Shown: positions 17,358 to 26,348 of the stretch, in pieces
Position numbering within the stretch: the stretch's first letter is position 1
How the letters are laid out: each line of letters opens with the position of its first letter
NCBI RefSeq assembly: GCF_008033135.1
Contig: NZ_CP041335.1
Location: 499,513 to 531,512 of the forward strand
Source: Chitinolyticbacter meiyuanensis
Lineage (GTDB): Bacteria > Pseudomonadota > Gammaproteobacteria > Burkholderiales > Chitinibacteraceae
Direction: 5' to 3'
DNA length: 32,000 nucleotides
Notes under the pieces: generated by a model
Told to the model about the DNA's origin: nothing
Databases searched by the model: none
What the model saw: the letters and a program-made list of their open reading frames with translations, nothing else
Made by a program: the position numbers and the translations under genes

Positions 17358-17552
17358 TCACGGGCATGCCACCCGCCAGGCATCCAAGTTGCGCCGCTTG
17401 AGTACGCCGGAGAACTTCAGCTGCTTTGCCTGCGGGCAGAACTGGCTGGTGTCGCCGGTGAGATCGGTGTACTCGGCCATGAACACCGCCTTGCCGGCGT
17501 CGGTATAGGGCTTGAGGTCGGCGCACCAGCCGTAGTGCGCGCAGTCTTCCGT
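17358..17552 (-). pseudogene. 3' fragment of a GH114 (endo-alpha-1,4-polygalactosaminidase-like) gene cut off by prophage insertion
   Basis: Minus-strand reading gives EDCAHYGWCADLKPYTDAGKAVFMAEYTDLTGDTSQFCPQAKQLKFSGVLKRRNLDAWRVACP*, the expected C-terminal block of GH114 proteins. It continues the reading frame interrupted at 25686. The track ORF 17358..17663 extends artefactually into phage DNA. Confidence 0.75.
17548..17552. repeat. attL core (TCCGT)
   Basis: Shared pentanucleotide at the left host/phage junction. Host GH114 sequence lies to the left and phage sequence to the right. Confidence 0.6.
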
Positions 17553-17634
17553 TTTTGCCCACCTTTTCTTACATCGCCGTTCGTCGGCTTGTTGGTCTAA
17601 TCTGTCAATTGTCGCCAACAACATACAGAACAGC

Positions 17635-18234
17635 ATGCTGATTGGATACGCACGGGTTAGCACTGATCATCAAGTAACTGACGTCCAACGTCGGGAATTG
17701 CAGCGTGTTGGCTGCAAAGTCATCTACGAAGAAACGCGATCAGGCGCCACCATGCGCCGACCAGAACTAAGAGCAATGCTTGAACGTCTCCAGCCCGGGG
17801 ACGTTGTTCTAGTCTACAAGCTGGATCGCATCGCACGATCCCTGAAAGACCTGCTGACCATCATCGAGCACATCGAGGACTCGGGAGCAGAGTTCAAATC
17901 CCTGACCGAAATCATCGACACCACCCAGCCATCGGGACGCATGATCCTACAAATCCTCGGGGCATTTGCCGAGTTCGAGAAAGAGCTAACCCGGGAACGC
18001 ACGAAAGCTGGACTAAAGGCAGCCAAAGAGCGCGGTGTCCGGCTAGGCCGAGAGCGTGTGCTATCCGACGATGAGGCTGCAAAGATAGTAGCGCTATGGT
18101 CTAACGGATCATTCAACAAGCTGCAGCTATCCCGCAAATTCAACATATCTCGCCGAACCATCAGCAGAGCAATTGACCGCGCTAACCGCGAAGCTCAACC
18201 CGAGCTGTTCGCCCATGTCCTGGCCGGGGATTAA
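17635..18234 (+). CDS. small serine recombinase (resolvase/invertase family)
   Basis: 199-aa ORF MLIGYARVSTDHQ... with the catalytic Ser in the YARVST motif, ...LVYKLDRIARS..., and a C-terminal HTH (LSRKFNISRRTISRAI). Lies 82 bp inside the left prophage end. Confidence 0.9.
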   Translation: MLIGYARVSTDHQVTDVQRRELQRVGCKVIYEETRSGATMRRPELRAMLERLQPGDVVLVYKLDRIARSLKDLLTIIEHIEDSGAEFKSLTEIIDTTQPSGRMILQILGAFAEFEKELTRERTKAGLKAAKERGVRLGRERVLSDDEAAKIVALWSNGSFNKLQLSRKFNISRRTISRAIDRANREAQPELFAHVLAGD

Positions 18235-18433
18235 CCCGGCCACCCTACGGGCAAGGGACGGCATGGGCTCTACCCACATCCGCTACGACGACACGCCGCC
18301 CGGCTAGCAGAAAGACCGTCTGGCCCGTCACGGCCCGGTGTCGGCTTCGCCTGCCCCCGGCCGTGCCCAGCCATCGACGTAAAAACCACCCGGGCGGCTT
18401 TTCGTGACGGTCGCTTTATTCCGACAGACGGCT

Positions 18434-18462
18434 TTGCGTATTTATGTGACAGTCACTATAAT
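18434..18462 (+). promoter_or_regulatory. sigma70-type promoter of the H-NS-like gene with an operator in the spacer
   Basis: TTGCGT (18434..18439), a 17-nt spacer, then TATAAT (18457..18462). The spacer contains the GTGACAGTCAC palindrome (18446..18456). Confidence 0.55.
18446..18456. promoter_or_regulatory. GTGACAGTCAC palindrome, copy 1
   Basis: Perfect GTGAC-N-GTCAC immediately 5' of the TATAAT box. Confidence 0.6.
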
Positions 18463-18496
18463 TTGAGTGTGGGCAACGTGCGTTAAGGGGATTGAA

Positions 18497-19183
18497 ATGC
18501 GTGACAGTCACGATGACAAAACACTGCAGCTAGATGTGGGCGAAACACCAAAGAAACGCGGTAGGCCAGCACTGGGCGATAAGCCAATGACTGCTGCTGA
18601 GCGCAAAGCCAAATCCCGACTTCAAGCAAAGCGCACAGCCTTGAGCATCGACCTCGATAACTTGAAAACCTTAAGCGATGAACAACTCCTTTACCTAATG
18701 AGAAACATGGTAGGCATAGCTAGTCGCGCCAGGCTTGCATGGGCCGAATATGGTCGCCGTCACGAAATCCTTGTTTTCGATCCTAGCGATGCGGTGCGAG
18801 CTCAGATACAGAGCCTGAAGGCAGCGGAAAGCAGACTTCAAAAAGCTATCGAGGTGACTGTCACAAAAGAAGCGCCCGCTCCTGGAAAGCCGAATAAAGT
18901 GACTGGCACAAAAGAAAAGAAGGACGAAGCGGCCCCACCAGTGCAAGAACGCCTGCCGATGGCAGACTTGATCCGCGAAGCAAAGACGCGAGGTAAATTC
19001 GCGACTGTCACTAATTCAAAGCCTACACAGAAGAATAAAGCGGCAGTCACTAAAACGCCCGCTGCAAAGTACCAGCATCCTACCGAGGCAAACGCCACGT
19101 GGAGCGGGCGAGGGAAGAAGCCTCAATGGGTTATCGACTGGATGGCATCAGGTAAATCGCTCGAGGCTCTCGAGAGCAAATGA
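18497..19183 (+). CDS. H-NS family DNA-binding protein with N-terminal AT-hook-like motif (prophage-encoded)
   Basis: Start chosen at ATG 18497, with AAGGGG 6 nt upstream. The N-terminus has PKKRGRPALG (RGRP AT-hook core). The centre is helical and followed by a K/T/P-rich linker. The C-terminus AAKYQHPTEANATWSGRGKKPQWVIDWMASGKSLEALE matches the H-NS C-terminal DNA-binding domain (TW[ST]G[QR]G+xP...GKSL[DE]). Confidence 0.8.
   Translation: MRDSHDDKTLQLDVGETPKKRGRPALGDKPMTAAERKAKSRLQAKRTALSIDLDNLKTLSDEQLLYLMRNMVGIASRARLAWAEYGRRHEILVFDPSDAVRAQIQSLKAAESRLQKAIEVTVTKEAPAPGKPNKVTGTKEKKDEAAPPVQERLPMADLIREAKTRGKFATVTNSKPTQKNKAAVTKTPAAKYQHPTEANATWSGRGKKPQWVIDWMASGKSLEALESK
18501..18511. promoter_or_regulatory. 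GTGACAGTCAC palindrome, copy 2
   Basis: Perfect copy at codons 2-5 of the H-NS-like gene, 55 bp centre-to-centre from copy 1. Confidence 0.6.
18854..18864. promoter_or_regulatory. GTGACTGTCAC palindrome, copy 3 (inside the H-NS-like CDS)
   Basis: Perfect copy. A one-mismatch copy GTGACTGGCAC lies 45 bp downstream at 18899..18909, both followed by AAAAGAA. Another one-mismatch copy GCGACTGTCAC is at 19001..19011. Confidence 0.5.
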
Positions 19184-19245
19184 AGCTGACGCCGGCATGT
19201 AAGCACTCATGTCAGCAATGGCCACACTAATTTCTCTGAAAACAG

Positions 19246-19270
19246 AAAAGCCCGCGATCGCGGGCTTTTT
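19246..19270. terminator. bidirectional rho-independent terminator between convergent genes
   Basis: AAAA-GCCCGCGATCGCGGGC-TTTTT: a 16-nt perfect palindrome flanked by A and T runs, between the stops at 19183 (+) and 19283 (-). Confidence 0.75.
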
Positions 19271-19282
19271 GGTCTGTAGCTA

Positions 19283-19681
19283 TCAAGAATCAGCGTTTTT
19301 AACTCGTCGACGGCTTCGGCCGGGGTCCACCTGGTTGTTTTCCAATAGGTTGCATCTATCCAGATCAACCACACGCCGCCCACTCTCTTCACGCATCTGC
19401 CGCAGCAACTCAGCCTCAAATAGCTTCGTCAACCGTCCCATATGCCACGTAAACGCACTACAACCAACATAGGCGTATGAAGCAAAAGCAGCATGACGGC
19501 TGGACCAGTTGCAATAACGTCCATTGCGTCGGCGGAAGCGCCAATACAGAGAGCTGAGCTCGCCCCAAAACGCCCAAGCCATTACCGCCACAAACAGCAT
19601 AAGCAACACACCGAGCTGAAATCCCGCCCAAAACACCTGCATGGCGGCCTCAGCAAGTTGCTGCGTTTCCAATTCACTCAT
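19283..19681 (-). CDS. hypothetical prophage membrane protein
   Basis: 132-aa ORF with AGGAAAG upstream of ATG 19681, two hydrophobic segments near the N-terminus and a basic C-terminal half. No family recognised. Confidence 0.5.
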   Translation of the reverse strand: MSELETQQLAEAAMQVFWAGFQLGVLLMLFVAVMAWAFWGELSSLYWRFRRRNGRYCNWSSRHAAFASYAYVGCSAFTWHMGRLTKLFEAELLRQMREESGRRVVDLDRCNLLENNQVDPGRSRRRVKNADS

Positions 19682-19695
19682 TGTCTTTCCTTTTT

Positions 19696-19706
19696 GTGAC
19701 CGTCAC
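19696..19706. promoter_or_regulatory. GTGACCGTCAC palindrome, copy 4
   Basis: Perfect GTGAC-N-GTCAC 15 nt upstream of the ATG of the 132-aa ORF, directly 5' of its RBS. Confidence 0.55.
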
Positions 19707-19840
19707 TCAGCGGCAATCCGTCGGGCGAGGTGAACGTATCGGGCACTCAGCCCATGCGATGAAATCGATCCGCCGTTGCTCTGGCGTTCTATCGAGAGAT
19801 GCGCAGCCAGAAAGGATCAGCACAAGGAGAACGGCGCACC

Positions 19841-20833
19841 TCATACCGATGCCCCGCCGTGCTCAACTGGTTGTAGCTGCTGCTGCTGCTGCTGCGTCTG
19901 CTGCTGATCCGGTGCAAGGTGCGGCAGGAAGATGCCATTAGCGACGATGTTGCGGCACAAGTCATCGTCCATCTGAATCGGCGTGGCTTGATTGGTGTAG
20001 CACTTGCAGCGGTCGCCGATGGTGACGCATGCCTGAGGCGCCGGAATCTGCTGCGGCTTGGCCAAGTCGTCGTAGGCCGGGGCGGTGTGCGGGAGCCCGT
20101 CCAGGCGCGGCTGCTGTTTCTCGATCCACGACAGCTCTGGCTTTGCCATGGCGGTCTGCTGGGGTGTGTAGCCGGCAGGCATTGCTTGCCCTTCCGCCAC
20201 TTCGGCAGCTTGAGGATTCTGCAAGCGGTTTAGGTACTTGGTGGCAGTCCAGATCAGCCCGGCCAGCACGAACGGCAGTAGCAGCAGGAAGAAGACGCGG
20301 GGCGGTATACGGCGCTTATGCGTGTGCATCTCAGCCGACTTGTAATAGCTAAATACCTCCTTCGGGTATCCCCACTTGGTTTTGACGGCATCGGCGCGGG
20401 AGGTATCGCAGTTGAGCTTTACTTGAGCCCATTCGTTGAGGTTAGCGGCATGCATGCCAAAGGCCCGCATGACATGGACGTGGCGCCCCACGAGCGGCCG
20501 CACGTTGCCATCGAGTAGGCGCGGGCCTTGCGTGATCAGAAACAGATCGTGGCCATTGTGACGGTGCGTTTCGCACTTGGAGACATGCTCGGGCACTTGC
20601 GATCCATTGGCACGGGGCCGAAACACGCGCTGGCACTCATCAATGACGATGATGGCGCCGGGCGGTAGCTTGTGCCAATCCTCGGCTTTGTCGAGCTCAA
20701 GCCACGGCAACTTGAGATCCGAGATCCCGGAGTAATAAACCTGCCGACCCTCTTTTTCGGCCATCTGGTTCACATACCAGAGCGTATATAGCGTTTTCCC
20801 AGCGCCGGGCTGTCCAGTAATGAGCGTAATCAT
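19841..20833 (-). CDS. Zot-like / gI-type filamentous phage assembly ATPase
   Basis: 330-aa ORF MITLITGQPGAGKTLYTLWYV with Walker A, a Walker B-like IIVIDECQ, a central TM segment (VFFLLLLPFVLAGLIW) and a Q-rich C-terminus. Its start overlaps the upstream gVI-like gene (ATGA). Confidence 0.88.
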   Translation of the reverse strand: MITLITGQPGAGKTLYTLWYVNQMAEKEGRQVYYSGISDLKLPWLELDKAEDWHKLPPGAIIVIDECQRVFRPRANGSQVPEHVSKCETHRHNGHDLFLITQGPRLLDGNVRPLVGRHVHVMRAFGMHAANLNEWAQVKLNCDTSRADAVKTKWGYPKEVFSYYKSAEMHTHKRRIPPRVFFLLLLPFVLAGLIWTATKYLNRLQNPQAAEVAEGQAMPAGYTPQQTAMAKPELSWIEKQQPRLDGLPHTAPAYDDLAKPQQIPAPQACVTIGDRCKCYTNQATPIQMDDDLCRNIVANGIFLPHLAPDQQQTQQQQQQLQPVEHGGASV

Positions 20834-21144
20834 TTAGTCACCCACTTTTTAACGGTTTCGCCGGTCAGGCCGTTGAGTACCATTCGCGCGACGATGGCCG
20901 AAAAGACAATAGAAAGCACGACGTCGAGCTTCATCACGCCGAGCACCTGTAAAACACCCGGCGGCGCACCTGAAATCACGGATTTGACGTTGTTGAATAT
21001 GCTATCCAGACCAGTGCGCAGGCCGGTATAAGTCACGACGCCAACACCCATTGCAATAATGGCGCGACCGATAATCGTGCCAGCAGCACTGGCAAGGGCG
21101 CCAACAAGGGCGGGAACGAATACAGCAAGTAACGGTACTGGCAT
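20830..21144 (-). CDS. gVI-like minor coat protein (DUF2523-type)
   Basis: 104-aa ORF, very hydrophobic (MPVPLLAVFVPALVGALASAAGTIIGRAIIAMGVGVVTYTGL...VLGVMKLDVVLSIVFSAIVARMVLNGLTG), positioned between the gIII-like and Zot genes as in other inoviruses. Confidence 0.75.
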   Translation of the reverse strand: MPVPLLAVFVPALVGALASAAGTIIGRAIIAMGVGVVTYTGLRTGLDSIFNNVKSVISGAPPGVLQVLGVMKLDVVLSIVFSAIVARMVLNGLTGETVKKWVTK

Positions 21145-21146
21145 GA

Positions 21147-22619
21147 TTAACCCCTAAATACGATCAATGCGGCGATGATCCATGCACCGGCAACCATTAA
21201 TTCGCCGATGATTTGTAGCGTTGAACAGATTTTAGATAGCGCAATGGTGACGCTTCGACCCATTACCGACACCTGTATGTCTTGAGGGCAGGAGCGCGAT
21301 AACCATGCATCGGTTTTGATGGCGCCTTGGAAGCTAATAGCATCGGACGAGTCGCCAAAAATTTGCCCTTTCACTTCTTCGAGACCAGTACCATCCATGG
21401 CACCTTGCCCTTTTTTATACAGGTCGCCCTCTTCAATTGTTTTAGCGTCTTGATCAGCCCGGCAGTACTCTTTCCAATTCACCTTTGCTATTTCACAACT
21501 GACCGCATCATCTGATTCACAGGTAAATGCTTCGCATGAAGCAGTTACGCTGCTTTTCGTGCCTTTGCATTGCTGTGCATTGGGATTGTTTTTGCAGTAT
21601 TCCTCGGACGGTTGATCCGTCGTTTCCGTGCGCGTTGTCGTGCAACCTTCAGGCTTGGTGCACGTAGAACCGTCCGGCATCTTTCCACCATTGGGAACAG
21701 TCGTCGTCGTGGTGTCCGTAGTCTTTACACCAGTGCCGGTATCAGTAGTGCTCTTGGTTGTCGTTTCCGTTGTCGGTTGACCACTGTCGGTGGTAGTTGT
21801 CTTAGTCGTTTGCGTTGTCGTCGTTACCGGCGTATCAGGCGAAGGATTGACGCATCTCACTTCACCATTGACGTACCCGAACGACTTTCCCTTAGCCAAG
21901 CAATCCCCCTCGGTTGTTTTAGGAACCGGCGTGGGGCCGGGCGTAGGAGAAGGACCGGGCGTTGGATTGACGGGCGTAGGAACTGGCGTAGGCTGCGCCG
22001 CAGGGTCTAATTCACCCCTTTCGCACGCCTCACCTATTGAGCGCTTGGCAGTAGACGTGCACGTATAGAAACCATTTTGCTTATTGCCGCAATAGAGACC
22101 GCCCGATGCCGCATACAAACAACCGTTGTCGCAGCGCAATACAAAATCGTCTATCGAGCTAGATTTAAACGTCATGCGCCCACCCATTGTGCCCTCGGCA
22201 GGGCATGGCTTTGGCGTCGGAGTCGGTGCAGGCGTCGGAGTCAGCGCTACACATTGCCCAGTTACAGGATCAAGCGTTGATGGCGAATTACAGGCTAAAC
22301 CGTCATCCGACAACATGGCAGCGGTTACAAGGCCCGTCCAAGTAGAGCCCGTCCACCGATCAACAGAACAGCCACTGCCAGCGACCTGCTTCATGTATGT
22401 ATTCGTTTTGTACGAAGACGGCGTCGCCGCATACCAAGCTTCACATGCGCCCCAAGCAGTATTCCCATATGCAGTAATACCCGGTGACGAATATGGAGAC
22501 TCGTTTGAAACGGCTTTCCATTTGGCAAGTGCTGGATTTGCGATTAGCAGCAGTGCAATTAATCCAATACCCAATAGAAGGCGACGAGCACCGCAAAAAT
22601 ATAGAGCCATACCATTCAT
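21147..22619 (-). CDS. gIII-like adsorption / minor coat protein
   Basis: 490-aa ORF with a signal-like N-terminus, Cys-rich domains separated by P/T linkers (TPTPAPTPTPKP; PTPVPTPVNPTPGPSPTPGPTPVP), a Thr-rich tract and a C-terminal membrane anchor (IIGELMVAGAWIIAALIVFRG). It sits after the major coat gene. Confidence 0.65.
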   Translation of the reverse strand: MNGMALYFCGARRLLLGIGLIALLLIANPALAKWKAVSNESPYSSPGITAYGNTAWGACEAWYAATPSSYKTNTYMKQVAGSGCSVDRWTGSTWTGLVTAAMLSDDGLACNSPSTLDPVTGQCVALTPTPAPTPTPKPCPAEGTMGGRMTFKSSSIDDFVLRCDNGCLYAASGGLYCGNKQNGFYTCTSTAKRSIGEACERGELDPAAQPTPVPTPVNPTPGPSPTPGPTPVPKTTEGDCLAKGKSFGYVNGEVRCVNPSPDTPVTTTTQTTKTTTTDSGQPTTETTTKSTTDTGTGVKTTDTTTTTVPNGGKMPDGSTCTKPEGCTTTRTETTDQPSEEYCKNNPNAQQCKGTKSSVTASCEAFTCESDDAVSCEIAKVNWKEYCRADQDAKTIEEGDLYKKGQGAMDGTGLEEVKGQIFGDSSDAISFQGAIKTDAWLSRSCPQDIQVSVMGRSVTIALSKICSTLQIIGELMVAGAWIIAALIVFRG

Positions 22620-22638
22620 TTCATCCCCGCCTAGGCAA

Positions 22639-22668
22639 TAAAAAAGCCGCCGCCAGATAGCGACGGCT
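22639..22668 (-). terminator. rho-independent terminator after the major coat gene
   Basis: Minus strand reads AGCCGTCGC-TATCTG-GCGGCGGCT (9-bp stem with one G:U) followed by TTTTTTATT, about 20 nt after the stop at 22687. Confidence 0.75.
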
Positions 22669-22686
22669 CGACCGGACCAGATGGAT

Positions 22687-22887
22687 TTACAGCGCGCCGC
22701 GAATCCACTTGTAAACCTTGATGCCGACGTAGATCAGCACCACGGCAGCACCGATGACACCAACGGCAGTCGCTGCATCGGTAATGCCGGCCGTAATCGA
22801 TGCGGTGTCGATGGCAGCAAAGGCCGCAGAAGTCGCAGCCATGAAACCTGCAGCGACAGGAGCAAAAAACTTAATCTTCTTGAACAT
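22687..22887 (-). CDS. gVIII-like major coat protein precursor
   Basis: 66-aa ORF with signal peptide [24 protein letters not shown]. The mature part of about 42 aa has an acidic N-terminus (AIDTASITAGITD), a hydrophobic core (AVGVIGAAVVLIYVGI) and a basic C-terminus (KVYKWIRGAL). Confidence 0.8.
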   Translation of the reverse strand: MFKKIKFFAPVAAGFMAATSAAFAAIDTASITAGITDAATAVGVIGAAVVLIYVGIKVYKWIRGAL

Positions 22888-23164
22888 CGTCTTTTTCCTT
22901 GATTTGACGGGCTATGGTTCGCCATCCCCATGCTATAGCCCAAAGCACGAGAATGGATGTGAGCAAGGAATTGGCTTCCGCCATGCTCAAATCTGGTAGT
23001 GTTTTTAACGACTGAATTTCGGCATGTGTCATCAGAATAAAACCCGGGCATTGTTCTGGCGGCACATCCCGATAGACCAAGGTATTACCCGTGCCCGGCG
23101 CATCCAAAGGACCACAACTAGCCGGCCCTGTACCACATAGCTTTACTTCAAAGCAGGTGGGCAT
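22871..23164 (-). CDS. hypothetical small prophage protein with C-terminal TM segment
   Basis: 97-aa ORF with a Cys-rich N-terminal half and a TM segment LLTSILVLWAIAWGW. It overlaps the coat gene start by 17 nt and may be a minor coat or morphogenesis protein. Confidence 0.45.
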   Translation of the reverse strand: MPTCFEVKLCGTGPASCGPLDAPGTGNTLVYRDVPPEQCPGFILMTHAEIQSLKTLPDLSMAEANSLLTSILVLWAIAWGWRTIARQIKEKDDVQED

Positions 23165-23165
23165 A

Positions 23166-23225
23166 TCAATTTCTCGACTTCCAAATTACAACGCCAATCA
23201 CCAGAGCGAGACCGGCAATGCTCAT
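23166..23225 (-). CDS. possible 19-codon hydrophobic mini-ORF (gVII/gIX-like size class)
   Basis: Hand translation gives MSIAGLALVIGVVIWKSRN*. Its stop TGA is 1 nt from the next ATG (TGATATG). No clear RBS, so this is speculative. Confidence 0.2.
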   Translation of the reverse strand: MSIAGLALVIGVVIWKSRN

Positions 23226-23235
23226 TACAGTTAAT

Positions 23236-23246
23236 GTGACAGTCAC
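23236..23246. promoter_or_regulatory. GTGACAGTCAC palindrome, copy 5 (extended ATGTGACAGTCACAT)
   Basis: Perfect copy in the short spacer between the Rep stop (23267) and the mini-ORF. The dyad extends to 15 bp (23234..23248). Confidence 0.55.
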
Positions 23247-23266
23247 ATATAAAGCAATTTGCGGAA

Positions 23267-24529
23267 TCATGCGGCCACCCGTTGTGCATGCTTGTAATCG
23301 CGCATTGCCAATAGATCGCGAATATCCAGCGGATTCATATTGAATAGGCTGGAATTACGCACCGGCATGACGCAAAGGCGATTGCTCGATTTAAATGGCT
23401 TGAAATCGCGCGGCACTTTAAGCGCCTCATCGAGCAAATAGACATTGCTGGCAAGCCAAGAGACGCCCGCGTCAATCAGCTTCTTACGGTTTTCGTAGAA
23501 TTGCGTCTTTGAATAGTCCATGCGCACAAGCGATTCACCTTCGGCCGCTAAGCGCATCCAGAAGGCGAGCAGGTTATTTGCAGAACGCGTGCCATACACG
23601 GATTGCAGACGGCTACGGACAGCTTCGTGATTGCGGACGGTTTCCATGTCGGAATCCCCCTCTTTAAGCAACTTTTGAACTTCGGTCGAATAAACGGATT
23701 CTAGGTATTCGTCAGTAATTTCTGAAACGAGCGGGTAACGGTCGCCAAAGTCATAATTCAATTTTGGCGCATTGATTTGCACTTCTACCCGTAGCCGTGA
23801 ATCAGCTATCTTCGCAAGTGCGCGCAAGGTGCGATGAACTTTGTTAACTTTTCTTGATTCGGTCCATTCGGACATATTCTTGTATTTAGCATTAAGAATC
23901 ACCGGCAGGATACGGCGGATTCTCGGCAAATCATGGGCGCGGAATTCCGGGCCTTTGTGATACAGCCGCAATGTCGTCATTTCGCCCGGAAAATGCAACG
24001 AGTGGTCGCCATGCTGGCTTGATTTATCTTTGCGACGCGGAAATACGGCTTTCTTCAATGCGCGGAAATATTCGGCTATTGCATCTGGGCTGAGATAGAA
24101 CATATGCGCCCAGTCAATACGACGTACTTCCCAGTATTTTGCCGATGGCAATTCCCAATTCGGGTCTTGCTGCGGATTAAGCAGTAATTCGGTTGTCGAT
24201 ATCAGCAAAAAGCACAGGGTTTGCACGTCAACGGGATTGCCATAGACATTTTGGCCATATAGCACTTTATGAACCGAGCACTCCAAGAGAATGTACGGTT
24301 CGCAAGGTACTAATTCGCAGCGACCTTTGATGTTGACCCAATCATCGCGGCAGACACGGAAGCTAATGCGGCTGTCGTAGCTGCCATCCAATTTGCCTGT
24401 CGTCATTTCGTAGAGCATTTCGCCGCTACGCAGATCGATACCTTGTTTGAGCGTGCATTGCTGTTCGAGGTAATCGGCCAATTGCGGATTAATGATCGGC
24501 GAACGCAGCTTGATCGTATCGACGGCCAT
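23267..24529 (-). CDS. putative rolling-circle replication initiation protein (gII / Rep_trans-like)
   Basis: Start chosen at ATG 24529 (MAVDTIKLRSPI...), overlapping the upstream ORF stop (TAATG). 420 aa. Blocks such as TLRLYHKGPEF and SRLRVEVQI resemble the (l/i)YdK..E and R.E. blocks of phage/plasmid Rep proteins. Size and position also fit. Not verified by search. Confidence 0.6.
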   Translation of the reverse strand: MAVDTIKLRSPIINPQLADYLEQQCTLKQGIDLRSGEMLYEMTTGKLDGSYDSRISFRVCRDDWVNIKGRCELVPCEPYILLECSVHKVLYGQNVYGNPVDVQTLCFLLISTTELLLNPQQDPNWELPSAKYWEVRRIDWAHMFYLSPDAIAEYFRALKKAVFPRRKDKSSQHGDHSLHFPGEMTTLRLYHKGPEFRAHDLPRIRRILPVILNAKYKNMSEWTESRKVNKVHRTLRALAKIADSRLRVEVQINAPKLNYDFGDRYPLVSEITDEYLESVYSTEVQKLLKEGDSDMETVRNHEAVRSRLQSVYGTRSANNLLAFWMRLAAEGESLVRMDYSKTQFYENRKKLIDAGVSWLASNVYLLDEALKVPRDFKPFKSSNRLCVMPVRNSSLFNMNPLDIRDLLAMRDYKHAQRVAA

Positions 24530-24795
24530 TATTCGATCACCGCCACGTTGATGGCCTTGAGATCTGCCACGTATCTGGCCCAGCGCGTCGGGCCGTAGAC
24601 ATTGAGCACGCCCGGCAGACCTTGGTGGTCCATCAGACACCACGCCATGAACAGCTCGGTGGCGTGAGGCTCTTTGTGGAACTCGTCGATGCGTTGCTGC
24701 ACTGCCGGAGTCGTCCGGGCCATCGTCGAGAGGGCCACAGCGCGTAACCGCTCTTGCTGGTTCAGGGCCTTTTGGCGATGCGAGACACGTGTCAT
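24529..24795 (-). CDS. hypothetical prophage protein
   Basis: 88-aa ORF translationally coupled to Rep. No family recognised. Confidence 0.45.
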   Translation of the reverse strand: MTRVSHRQKALNQQERLRAVALSTMARTTPAVQQRIDEFHKEPHATELFMAWCLMDHQGLPGVLNVYGPTRWARYVADLKAINVAVIE

Positions 24796-24870
24796 GGGGC
24801 TCTAGCGCTGTAAGGAAGTCGGTTTTCCGGTAAACCGGACTGATTCGGGGTGCTACATCCCGAACCCCGA

Positions 24871-24899
24871 AAAATCCGCCCCGGTTGGGGCGGCTTTTT
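24871..24899 (-). terminator. terminator-like hairpin after the 102-aa gene
   Basis: CCGCCCC-GGTT-GGGGCGG (7-bp stem) flanked by A5 and T5. On the minus strand it is followed by a T run, about 40 nt after the stop at 24934. Confidence 0.5.
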
Positions 24900-24933
24900 G
24901 GGAAAGGTTTCCGCTGTTTTTCTGACGAAGCCT

Positions 24934-25242
24934 TTAAGCTGGCTTGTGTTGCGGCTGAGGATCGCCATAACCAATGACGATGGGCTGCAAACGGCCAAAG
25001 CGCATGACGTTGTCCGTCACCAGATCAAGCCAAGCGGGGAACTTGACCTTTTCGAACTGAGGAAGCGTCTCGACTGCGAGATCAATCTCGCCGGGCTCAA
25101 AACCAAAGCCCTCTTTGGTGAAGGCTTCAGTCGCTGCAGGCTGGATGGGCGACCCGATGATCAGGGTGCACATGTCGTAGGGTTTCTTGCTGGCTTTGGC
25201 GATGCCTTTTTGGCGGCGGACGCCCAGAACGAGAGCTTTCAT
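24934..25242 (-). CDS. putative ssDNA-binding protein (gV-like)
   Basis: 102-aa ORF with a good RBS (AAAGGAAG) and first in the leftward operon. The N-terminal pattern RQKGIAKASKKPYDMCTL resembles the x-KG-x-PY-x segment of small inovirus ssDNA-binding proteins. The assignment rests on size, position and this weak similarity. Confidence 0.4.
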   Translation of the reverse strand: MKALVLGVRRQKGIAKASKKPYDMCTLIIGSPIQPAATEAFTKEGFGFEPGEIDLAVETLPQFEKVKFPAWLDLVTDNVMRFGRLQPIVIGYGDPQPQHKPA

Positions 25243-25320
25243 GCTGCTTCCTTTGAACGGTGAACGCGAAACGGTTTAGGATTCGCAATGAACCACCGAT
25301 TAAAAGAAGGCTTACCCCGT

Positions 25321-25372
25321 TCAACCAGTGATTGAATGCAAGCCGATAGAACCATTCAACGAGTGATTGAAT
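25321..25372. promoter_or_regulatory. two 17-bp direct repeats (candidate operators) in the divergent control region
   Basis: TCAACCAGTGATTGAAT (25321..25337) and TCAACGAGTGATTGAAT (25356..25372) match at 16/17 and lie 35 bp apart. Each contains an (A/G)TTCAA...TTGAAT inverted repeat. They sit between the divergent starts at 25242 (-) and 25397 (+). Confidence 0.5.
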
Positions 25373-25396
25373 CAATACCCGTAAAGAGGCCCAGTC

Positions 25397-25729
25397 ATGA
25401 AGACCAGCATAGATTTGCTTACTGAGTACCTAAGAGAGCATGAACAAAACGACGCAGCAAAGCTCTGCAACGTAAGCGCAGCAGCCGTAAGCGCATGGAA
25501 GAAGCGAGGAAGGGTTAGCCCTGCAGCAACAGTCAAAATCGGACTGTTCCTAGACTATCCCTATGATTTTCTTGTGAAAATTGTTGCGATCGAACAAGAA
25601 ACGACCGAAGAGGGCCGCAATTTTTTGACTCAACTGGCCCATACGCTACGCCCAGCGATGAGGACCGAGACTAATGGGCAGAAACGTCCGTCATGGCCCA
25701 GTCGAAGTGCGAGACCAGATCGCCGGTGA
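25397..25729 (+). CDS. Cro/CI-like HTH regulator; the 3' end crosses attR into host DNA
   Basis: 110-aa ORF with RBS AGAGG 7 nt upstream and HTH-like NDAAKLCNVSAAAVSAWKKRGRVSP. Codons after position 98 are host-derived (antisense of GH114). Confidence 0.7.
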   Translation: MKTSIDLLTEYLREHEQNDAAKLCNVSAAAVSAWKKRGRVSPAATVKIGLFLDYPYDFLVKIVAIEQETTEEGRNFLTQLAHTLRPAMRTETNGQKRPSWPSRSARPDRR

Positions 25730-26348
25730 GCGCGGGCGCGTTCTTCTGGCCGATGGACAGCCCGCGTGCATGCGCCTCGTCCGCCAACCAGCGGTTGTAG
25801 GCCAACTGATCGGCGCGGGTCAACGTAAAGCCGGTGTCGTTGGTGTAGCCCTCGATATTGTCCGGCTCCACGCCGTCGAAACCCTTGTCACGGCACAGGT
25901 CCAGCCGCGCACGCATGATGGGCGCCAGCTCGTCGATGCGCCGGATGTCCAGCCAGCGCTCGCCCGCCCAGCTGGCGTAGTCCTTGCCGAGTACGGCGGC
26001 GGGGAAGGCGTTGCGGTCCGGCCGCCAGTTTTCCCAGGCGCCGGCGTTCAGGTAGCAGATCACCCGCTTGCCGCGCGCCTTGAGCTGGCTTACCAGCTGG
26101 CTGGGCGTATCGAACAGGTCCAGATCATAGATGGCAACGTCCTGCGTGCTGTCGATATTGCCGTCGAGCTGCCATTGCCAGCTGGCGCCGGGTGCGGGAA
26201 TCCAGCGTGGCTGCGGATATGGCGTCGGGGTGGGTGTGGGATTCGGATTGATCACGATGCCGACCTCGGCATTGCAGCCGGCCAGCAGCAGCGCGGCACC
26301 GGCGACGGGCGTGGCCAGCCACCACAGCAGGGTTCGAGGCGAAGACAT
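25671..26348 (-). pseudogene. 5' part of a GH114 (endo-alpha-1,4-polygalactosaminidase-like) lipoprotein gene, interrupted by the prophage
   Basis: Start chosen at ATG 26348, with AGGAG upstream. Lipoprotein signal MSSPRTLLWWLATPVAGAALLLAGC. Conserved blocks include WQWQLDG, VICYLNAGAWENWRPD, GFDGVEPDNIEGY and GLSIGQKN. The reading frame leaves GH114-like sequence after ...SHFDWAMT and stops 5 phage-derived codons later. Confidence 0.8.
25687..25691. repeat. attR core (TCCGT)
   Basis: Shared pentanucleotide at the right phage/host junction. Confidence 0.6.

Follow-up and report, generated by a model that had tools for sequence, protein, structure and literature searches.

A 24-bp dyad as the probable crossover site of an inovirus prophage that interrupts a GH114 gene in Chitinolyticbacter meiyuanensis

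The analysed stretch of 32,000 nucleotides from Chitinolyticbacter meiyuanensis, called the window below, contains an intact inovirus prophage of 8139 bp. The prophage splits a gene for a GH114-domain lipoprotein and is single-copy in its own genome. Its G+C content is about 0.52 against 0.66 in the flanks, as seen in the composition profile. The features of the locus, in window coordinates, are the following.

17358..17549, minus strand, 3' fragment of the GH114 gene (rejoined ORF, PF03537)
17537..17560, no strand, attL: host left arm GCGCGCAGTCT - TC - phage arm CGTTTTTGCCC (from the sequence; boundary from the empty-site alignment)
17548..17552, no strand, left copy of TCCGT; the proposed 2-bp crossover TC is 17548-17549 (dyad centre on TC)
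17550..25688, no strand, inovirus prophage (Pfam and PHROG: Zot/pI, DUF2523/pVI, coat B, G2P, RstB)
17635..18234, plus strand, small serine recombinase of 199 aa, candidate integrase (PF00239, E=8e-46)
18467..19183, plus strand, 238-aa protein whose C-terminal DNA-binding domain is of the H-NS type, encoded immediately downstream of the recombinase (PF00816, E=1e-15)
19841..20833, minus strand, pI/Zot-like assembly ATPase (PF05707, phrog_197)
20830..21144, minus strand, pVI-like minor coat protein, DUF2523 (Pfam/PHROG)
21147..22619, minus strand, pIII-like adsorption protein (phrog_4352, E=8e-53; place in the gene order)
22687..22887, minus strand, major coat protein, Inovirus coat B (PF05356, E=1e-15)
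23267..24643, minus strand, pII rolling-circle replication initiator, G2P (PF05144, phrog_702)
24934..25242, minus strand, RstB-like single-strand DNA-binding protein (PF07459, phrog_929)
25397..25729, plus strand, regulator-like ORF reading across attR (weak HTH matches)
25676..25699, no strand, attR: phage arm GGGCAGAAACG - TC - host right arm CGTCATGGCCC (from the sequence)
25687..25691, no strand, right copy of TCCGT (from the sequence)
25689..26348, minus strand, 5' fragment of the GH114 lipoprotein gene, residues 1-220 (rejoined ORF, PF03537)

The prophage ends are independently fixed by the restoration of the host ORF and by gapless homologues of the empty site. When 17549 is joined to 25689, a continuous minus-strand ORF of 283 aa appears with a lipoprotein signal and a full-length GH114 domain (Pfam PF03537, E=1e-86). 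The insertion point is codon 220, and the gene is split after residue 220. The empty site of a genome of the same genus (L001) aligns over the join without gaps (172/198 nt identical, 87%), and a paralogue in the own genome also aligns through the join without gaps. The closest orthologue of the host GH114 gene is from Chitinolyticbacter (81% identity). The nearest tRNA in the window is a tRNA-Ala, 7 kb off. Neither a tyrosine integrase nor a transposase domain was found in the scanned ORFs of the element (Pfam/PHROG), and a whole-prophage megablast against 50,697 phage records gave no match. Hence, the element ends drawn by the first-pass annotation, its placement of the target inside an ORF and its statement that no tyrosine integrase gene is evident are all borne out.

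The paralogous GH114 gene (G000:C1:224984-225558; 83% DNA identity) has an extra N-terminal PF03995 domain. It carries GCGCAGTCTTCGGTCATTGCCC at the equivalent position, which is unoccupied and differs from attB at 2 of 22 bases, core included (TCGGT).

The sole block common to attL and attR is TCCGT. Joining the two phage arms around it gives the rebuilt attP GGGCAGAAACG-TC-CGTTTTTGCCC (GGGCAGAAACGTCCGTTTTTGCCC, 24 bp), the arms of which are complementary at 10/11 positions and the centre of which, TC, is formed by the first two bases of TCCGT. Such arms were reached by 52 of 2,000,000 random joins of the own genome (2.6e-5 per centre), which becomes about 1e-4 once the four centres possible in a 5-bp core are allowed. 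The attP dyad is thus confirmed, as is the first-pass claim of a near-perfect 24-bp dyad centred on TC with TCCGT at both junctions (17548-17552 and 25687-25691). Two of the figures given with it need correction. Between the host right arm and the corresponding phage arm the match is 8/11 and not 7/11, the latter being the score of the host right arm against the reverse complement of the other phage arm. The distance of 82 bp from attL to the recombinase gene is right when counted from the end of TCCGT to the ATG, but it is 74 bp from the end of the dyad. We infer from the symmetry and from the register seen in the family that TC is the probable cut position within TCCGT, in preference to CC, CG or GT.

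Extra half-sites, which might serve as accessory sites, were sought in the window, and only the two arms themselves have fewer than 2 mismatches; near the half-dyads at the prophage ends no other copy of the dyad with at most 2 mismatches was found. An inverted repeat CTTGTTGG...CCAACAAC (17585-17625) lies between attL and the recombinase start and may be an operator or an accessory site.

The 199-aa recombinase has the catalytic YARVS(9)T motif and a C-terminal HTH, and all invariant positions of an alignment of 22 homologues are conserved in it. Among solved structures the Gin invertase of phage Mu comes closest (4m6f, E=3e-38); the TP901-1 integrase matches weakly (E=4e-13). The best matches in the phage collection are Ralstonia filamentous phages, phiRs551 included, with the ORF13 resolvase of phiRs551 being 53.4% identical over 96% of the length. 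The first-pass annotation had called this enzyme the sole recombinase of the element, of the resolvase/invertase type, and had pointed to the Ralstonia RSM-type phages, in which small serine recombinases act as integrases at a tRNA gene. Both statements are in agreement with our results: the protein belongs to PF00239, no other recombinase domain occurs in the scanned ORFs of the element, and phiRs551 and phiRSM are its nearest named relatives at the 53.4% identity given above. The integrases of these phages use tRNA-Ser as the integration site (PMC3816273, PMC5608472), the phiRSM1 core being 13 nt equal to the 3' end of tRNA-Ser(UCG) (PMC3816273). In phiRs551 integration is abolished by deletion of the resolvase gene or of the attP core (PMC5608472), and the phiRSM Int catalyses both integration and excision (PMC4471427).

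With respect to the tRNA-Ser clade, the catalytic domain of the recombinase is 56-68% identical and the C-terminal DNA-binding domain is 22-41% identical. The recognition helix is ISRRTISRAI versus VHISSIKRAI, which is nearly invariant in the clade. The diverged C-terminal domain and the altered helix together point to a change of specificity. No relative with more than 60% identity was found in 5.8 billion proteins, and none with more than 52% in 56 genomes of the host family; the first of these results means that the GH114 integration event is known once only. We note that the public gene call of the recombinase (P0001, from MLERLQ...) appears truncated to 152 aa with the loss of the catalytic Ser9. 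The full 199-aa ORF aligns to its homologues from residue 1.

In the circular form the regulator-like ORF would cross attP as an ORF of 127 codons with its stop at 17641, thus overlapping the recombinase ATG (17635) by 7 nt, which agrees with the earlier statement that this ORF runs across attP into the recombinase start. The order of repressor, attP and resolvase annotated in the phiRs551 record is equal to that of the element here. Integration swaps the last 30 residues of the regulator for 13 largely host-encoded ones and parts the regulator-like ORF from the recombinase gene.

The close homologues whose contigs were inspected are all situated at an inovirus prophage end, next to either a tRNA-Ser gene or a copy of the tRNA-Ser 3' end. 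Among 80 reference-genome loci the closest fall into two arrangements. In the first one tRNA-Ser is followed by the recombinase gene at a distance of 52-187 bp. In the second one the recombinase gene lies beside a displaced copy of the tRNA end, and the intact tRNA is found at the far prophage end. The two are mirror images, with the intact tRNA-Ser by the recombinase gene in L043, L045, L056 and L057 versus the far end in P2, L047, L060, L062 and L067. The arms are constant relative to the gene (18/22 between attP here and L062), with the central dinucleotide reversed, TC versus GA; the polarity may be flipped by a mere change of the centre in a near-symmetric site.

For 15 of the tRNA-Ser prophages attP and attB were rebuilt and set in the tRNA sense. 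Their attP sites follow the pattern of a phage left arm, (A/T)C, and the acceptor 3' strand to CCA, and their attP/attB identity blocks span 13-25 bp. In 11 of the 15 the attP is more symmetric than the attB, with its centre on the AC or TC that opens the identity block; on 10-nt arms attP has a mean dyad score of 5.2 and attB one of 3.2. Next to the centre the bases covary by lineage (GG/CC or CG/CG). The attP of phiRs551, taken from the phage genome record, reads CGAAAAGG-AC-CCTCTCCG in equal register. The tRNA-Ser(gct) integrators L062 and L063 have the attP GGGCGAAATCG-TC-CGTTTCCGCCA, identical to the attP here at 18/24 positions. The published core ACCCTCTCCGCCA (PMC3816273) is present in the flanks of the Ralstonia homologues. 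The dyad at this register is missing in 4 of the 15 relatives (L047, L052, L060, L067), which copy the whole T-arm. Prophages L047 and L067 belong to Chitinimonas, a genus of the Chitinibacteraceae. In some RSM-type sites a competing dyad occurs 5 bp further left. It was rejected as the crossover, since the tRNA-side junction keeps host bases between that dyad and the core.

Eight Comamonadaceae prophages have the recombinase at the far end (L074, L081, L082, L087, L088, L094, L098, L114), with a clear tRNA-Ser repeat in L082 only, and non-tRNA targets may occur elsewhere in the recombinase family. The own genome has a second inovirus prophage of about 8.8 kb (about 4622-13428 of L013, G000:C1:3696000-3713000). 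Its integration site is tRNA-Ser(tga), with ACCGCTTCCGCCAA as a 14-bp repeat, and the small serine recombinase encoded at its far end is 52% identical to that of the GH114 prophage. One cell thus contains two related integrases with different targets, that of the GH114 prophage and that of the tRNA-Ser(tga) prophage.

The dyad was also found in metagenomes, where 42 contigs contain GCANAAACGTCCGTTTNTGC; it was not found in the viral-contig scan. In 7 of the 42 (6 distinct sequences) a homologous recombinase gene of 40-50% identity starts 87-154 bp from the dyad and reads away from it. Homologous recombinase genes at E<=1e-30 are present in only 10/56 genomes of the host family, and with such genes being this rare the adjacency is not due to chance. 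In contig L154 a dyad GTGCAGAAACG-TC-CGTTTGTGCAA, 20/24 identical to the attP here, is located 87 bp upstream of a 45%-identical recombinase gene, which is followed by a Tn3 DDE transposase gene. The latter makes the L154 dyad probably a res crossover site. The dyads of the metagenome contigs L151 (394-413), L119 and L154 lie within far longer perfect palindromes, with 19-nt arms in L151. Between dyad and recombinase gene a repeated TTGCAAAA...TATTGCATAA, noted in L151, L119 and L154, may represent accessory res subsites.

The assignment of the TC-centred dyad to a serine recombinase, made in the first-pass annotation, is upheld by the same register in most of the relatives' attP sites, by the dyads beside homologous genes and by the likeness to gix. 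Hence, we suggest, with a probability of about 0.8, that a filamentous phage of the phiRSM/phiRs551 type uses the 24-bp dyad as its crossover site (attP). The joining was, as we infer, probably carried out by the phage recombinase, and the reaction would be reversible.

We propose the following course of the reaction. In the circular replicative form attP would have the regulator ORF on one side and the recombinase gene on the other. Both arms, GGGCAGAAACG and its near-complement, would be bound by one dimer of the 199-aa Gin-like recombinase, and a second dimer would occupy the host site in the GH114 gene. The cuts, made by Ser9 of each subunit, would then flank the central TC and produce 2-nt overhangs, whereupon one half of the tetramer would rotate and the ends would rejoin. 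As TC is not palindromic, the phage would enter in a single orientation. The expected products are attL (host arm-TC-CGTTTTTGCCC) and attR (GGGCAGAAACG-TC-host arm), as observed. Excision would give the circle junction GGGCAGAAACGTCCGTTTTTGCCC and the repaired site GCGCAGTCTTCCGTCATGGCCC.

The meaning of the target is a separate matter. The phage arm by the recombinase gene, TC-CGTTTTTGCCCA, compared with the tRNA-Ser 3' end of the relatives, TC-CGTTTCCGCCA, looks like a decayed copy of it, and the lineage therefore probably descends from tRNA-Ser integrators. Whether it has since been retargeted or has used a look-alike site we hold to be about equal. We note that 42 other TC-centred sites of the genome match the arms at least as well (at least 8/11 on the right and at least 5/11 on the left). 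The idea that attB was chosen by its similarity to attP was dropped, as simple matching does not single out the GH114 site.

The strongest alternative keeps the same enzyme and the same dyad and takes the GH114 site as an accidental pseudo-attB, a look-alike of the tRNA-Ser 3' end that was used in a single integration. It overlaps with the explanation given above and differs only in the meaning of the target, and we consider that it comes close to an even chance. The host site TCCGTCATGGCCCA matches the 3' end of the own tRNA-Ser(gct), TCCGTCTCCGCCA, at 9/13. Nearly all relatives use tRNA-Ser, integration in GH114 is known from one event, the 42 other genome sites match attP equally well, and the insertion inactivates the gene instead of restoring it. 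However, the phage arm CGTTTTTGCCCA is unable to restore any of the four tRNA-Ser genes of its own genome, which suggests that the phage is no longer built for tRNA targeting. The tRNA-Ser(gct) gene of this genome is unoccupied, and the recognition helix is changed in a C-terminal domain of much lower identity to the tRNA-Ser clade (22-41%) than that of the catalytic domain (56-68%).

A more far-reaching version of the proposal is that an integrase of the phiRSM family was truly retargeted from tRNA-Ser to a protein-coding gene, by means of the HTH recognition helix and a re-symmetrised 24-bp attP, with the prophage acting as a reversible on/off switch of the GH114 hydrolase. In its entirety this seems rather unlikely to us. 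If the enzyme was retargeted, the switch would follow from the ability of phiRSM-type enzymes to excise as well.

The host machinery might have integrated the phage, either by XerCD at a dif-like site or by illegitimate recombination, with the recombinase only resolving multimers of the replicative form at the dyad. Many inoviruses indeed use XerCD/dif (PMC4471427), and the dyad is a probable res site beside a Tn3-type resolvase gene. Nevertheless, this is very improbable, as the junctions lie exactly at the dyad centre (about 1e-4), which is not expected of a host-mediated event, the target is inside a coding gene, and the dyad is devoid of the usual, well-established dif layout. In addition, integrase activity is proven for the homologous enzymes of phiRs551 and phiRSM (PMC5608472, PMC4471427).

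Entry by transposition, with TCCGT as a 5-bp target-site duplication, would account for the 5-base direct repeats that flank the insert and for the single copy in the empty site. Five bp is a common duplication length, and homologous recombinases do occur as resolvases beside Tn3-type transposases. This explanation is hardly credible in view of the scanned ORFs of the element, in which no transposase domain is found, and of the uneven terminal inverted repeats: the left one would begin 3 bases within the putative duplication and the right one would abut it, just as a 2-bp-centred dyad predicts. The identity blocks of 13-25 bp in the relatives also cannot be target duplications. Finally, with just one junction pair available the dyad could be a coincidence of two unrelated joined ends, but the chance is negligible, since random joins reach 10/11 at 2.6e-5 and the motif recurs beside homologous recombinase genes and in the attP sites of the relatives.

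Small serine recombinases have mainly been known in the role of resolvases or invertases dependent on accessory sites; that some of them act as phage integrases is seen from phiRSM and phiRs551. In the papers on them considered here, the phiRSM/phiRs551 sites are described only as a 13-nt tRNA core. We suggest a testable site model for the whole group, in which the identity block begins with the 2-bp crossover, one arm copies the tRNA acceptor strand and the other is an inverted repeat of that arm. The element described here would add a member that no longer uses the tRNA target and whose 24-bp attP is an almost perfect palindrome. Should the GH114 site be cognate, one genome would offer two related integrases of about 200 aa with different targets, which would be handy for studying site choice, and the GH114 and tRNA-Ser(tga) prophages (the latter at G000:3.70 Mb) would provide a natural pair for mapping the specificity determinants. 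The insertion inactivates a predicted exopolysaccharide hydrolase (GH114), possibly reversibly.

Among the known systems, the closest is the module of phiRSM1, phiRSM3 and phiRs551 (Habenivirus). It also has an inovirus genome, a resolvase/invertase-type recombinase of about 195 aa (53.4% identical), an attP between a repressor-like ORF and the recombinase gene, and an imperfect attP dyad with its centre at the two leading bases of the identity block. It integrates at tRNA-Ser(UCG), where the 13-nt 3' end serves as the target and is restored by the phage (PMC3816273, PMC5608472). Unlike in phiRSM/phiRs551, the target here belongs to the coding sequence of a GH114 gene, the common block has only 5 bp, and the gene is broken. 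The attP is also more symmetric on 10-nt arms (9/10 versus 6/10 for the Rs551-type site of L057), and the DNA-binding domain of the recombinase has diverged from those of the phiRSM/phiRs551-type enzymes.

Gin, the invertase of phage Mu, acts on a pair of gix sites by inverting the segment that they enclose, and depends on a Fis-bound enhancer. A crossover site of the gix/hix kind has half-sites of about 12 bp, a 2-bp centre and the inner motif AAAC/GTTT, and the attP here fits this description. Its inner 12 bp, AAACGGACGTTT, match the gix core AAACCGAGGTTT at 10/12, the central GA/TC included (PMC5175349). However, unlike in the gix/hix systems, the half-dyads here are parts of hybrid sites at the prophage ends and form no inverted pair, and the proposed reaction differs from that of Gin in being an intermolecular integration between unlike sites.

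The Tn3-family resolvase with its res site I is comparable through L154, in which a dyad likewise lies upstream of a homologous recombinase gene. The Tn3 setting of L154 implies intramolecular cointegrate resolution with accessory sites. In contrast, no transposase was found in the scanned ORFs of the element here, and the two halves of the dyad, one at each prophage end, are separated by 8.1 kb.

Large serine integrases (phiC31, Bxb1, TP901-1) share the 2-bp non-palindromic crossover and the unlike attP and attB, often inside coding genes. They have 450-600 aa with recombinase and zinc-ribbon domains and a separate directionality factor; the enzyme here, in contrast, has 199 aa and a simple HTH. 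In the usual dif layout 11-bp arms surround a 6-bp centre, and the attP dyad here is built otherwise. Unlike in the inoviruses that use XerCD/dif, the integration here is inside a coding gene. The element belongs with the phiRSM-type module as a variant of it, distinguished by an attP of unusual symmetry and by a target other than a tRNA, and does not represent a new kind of system.
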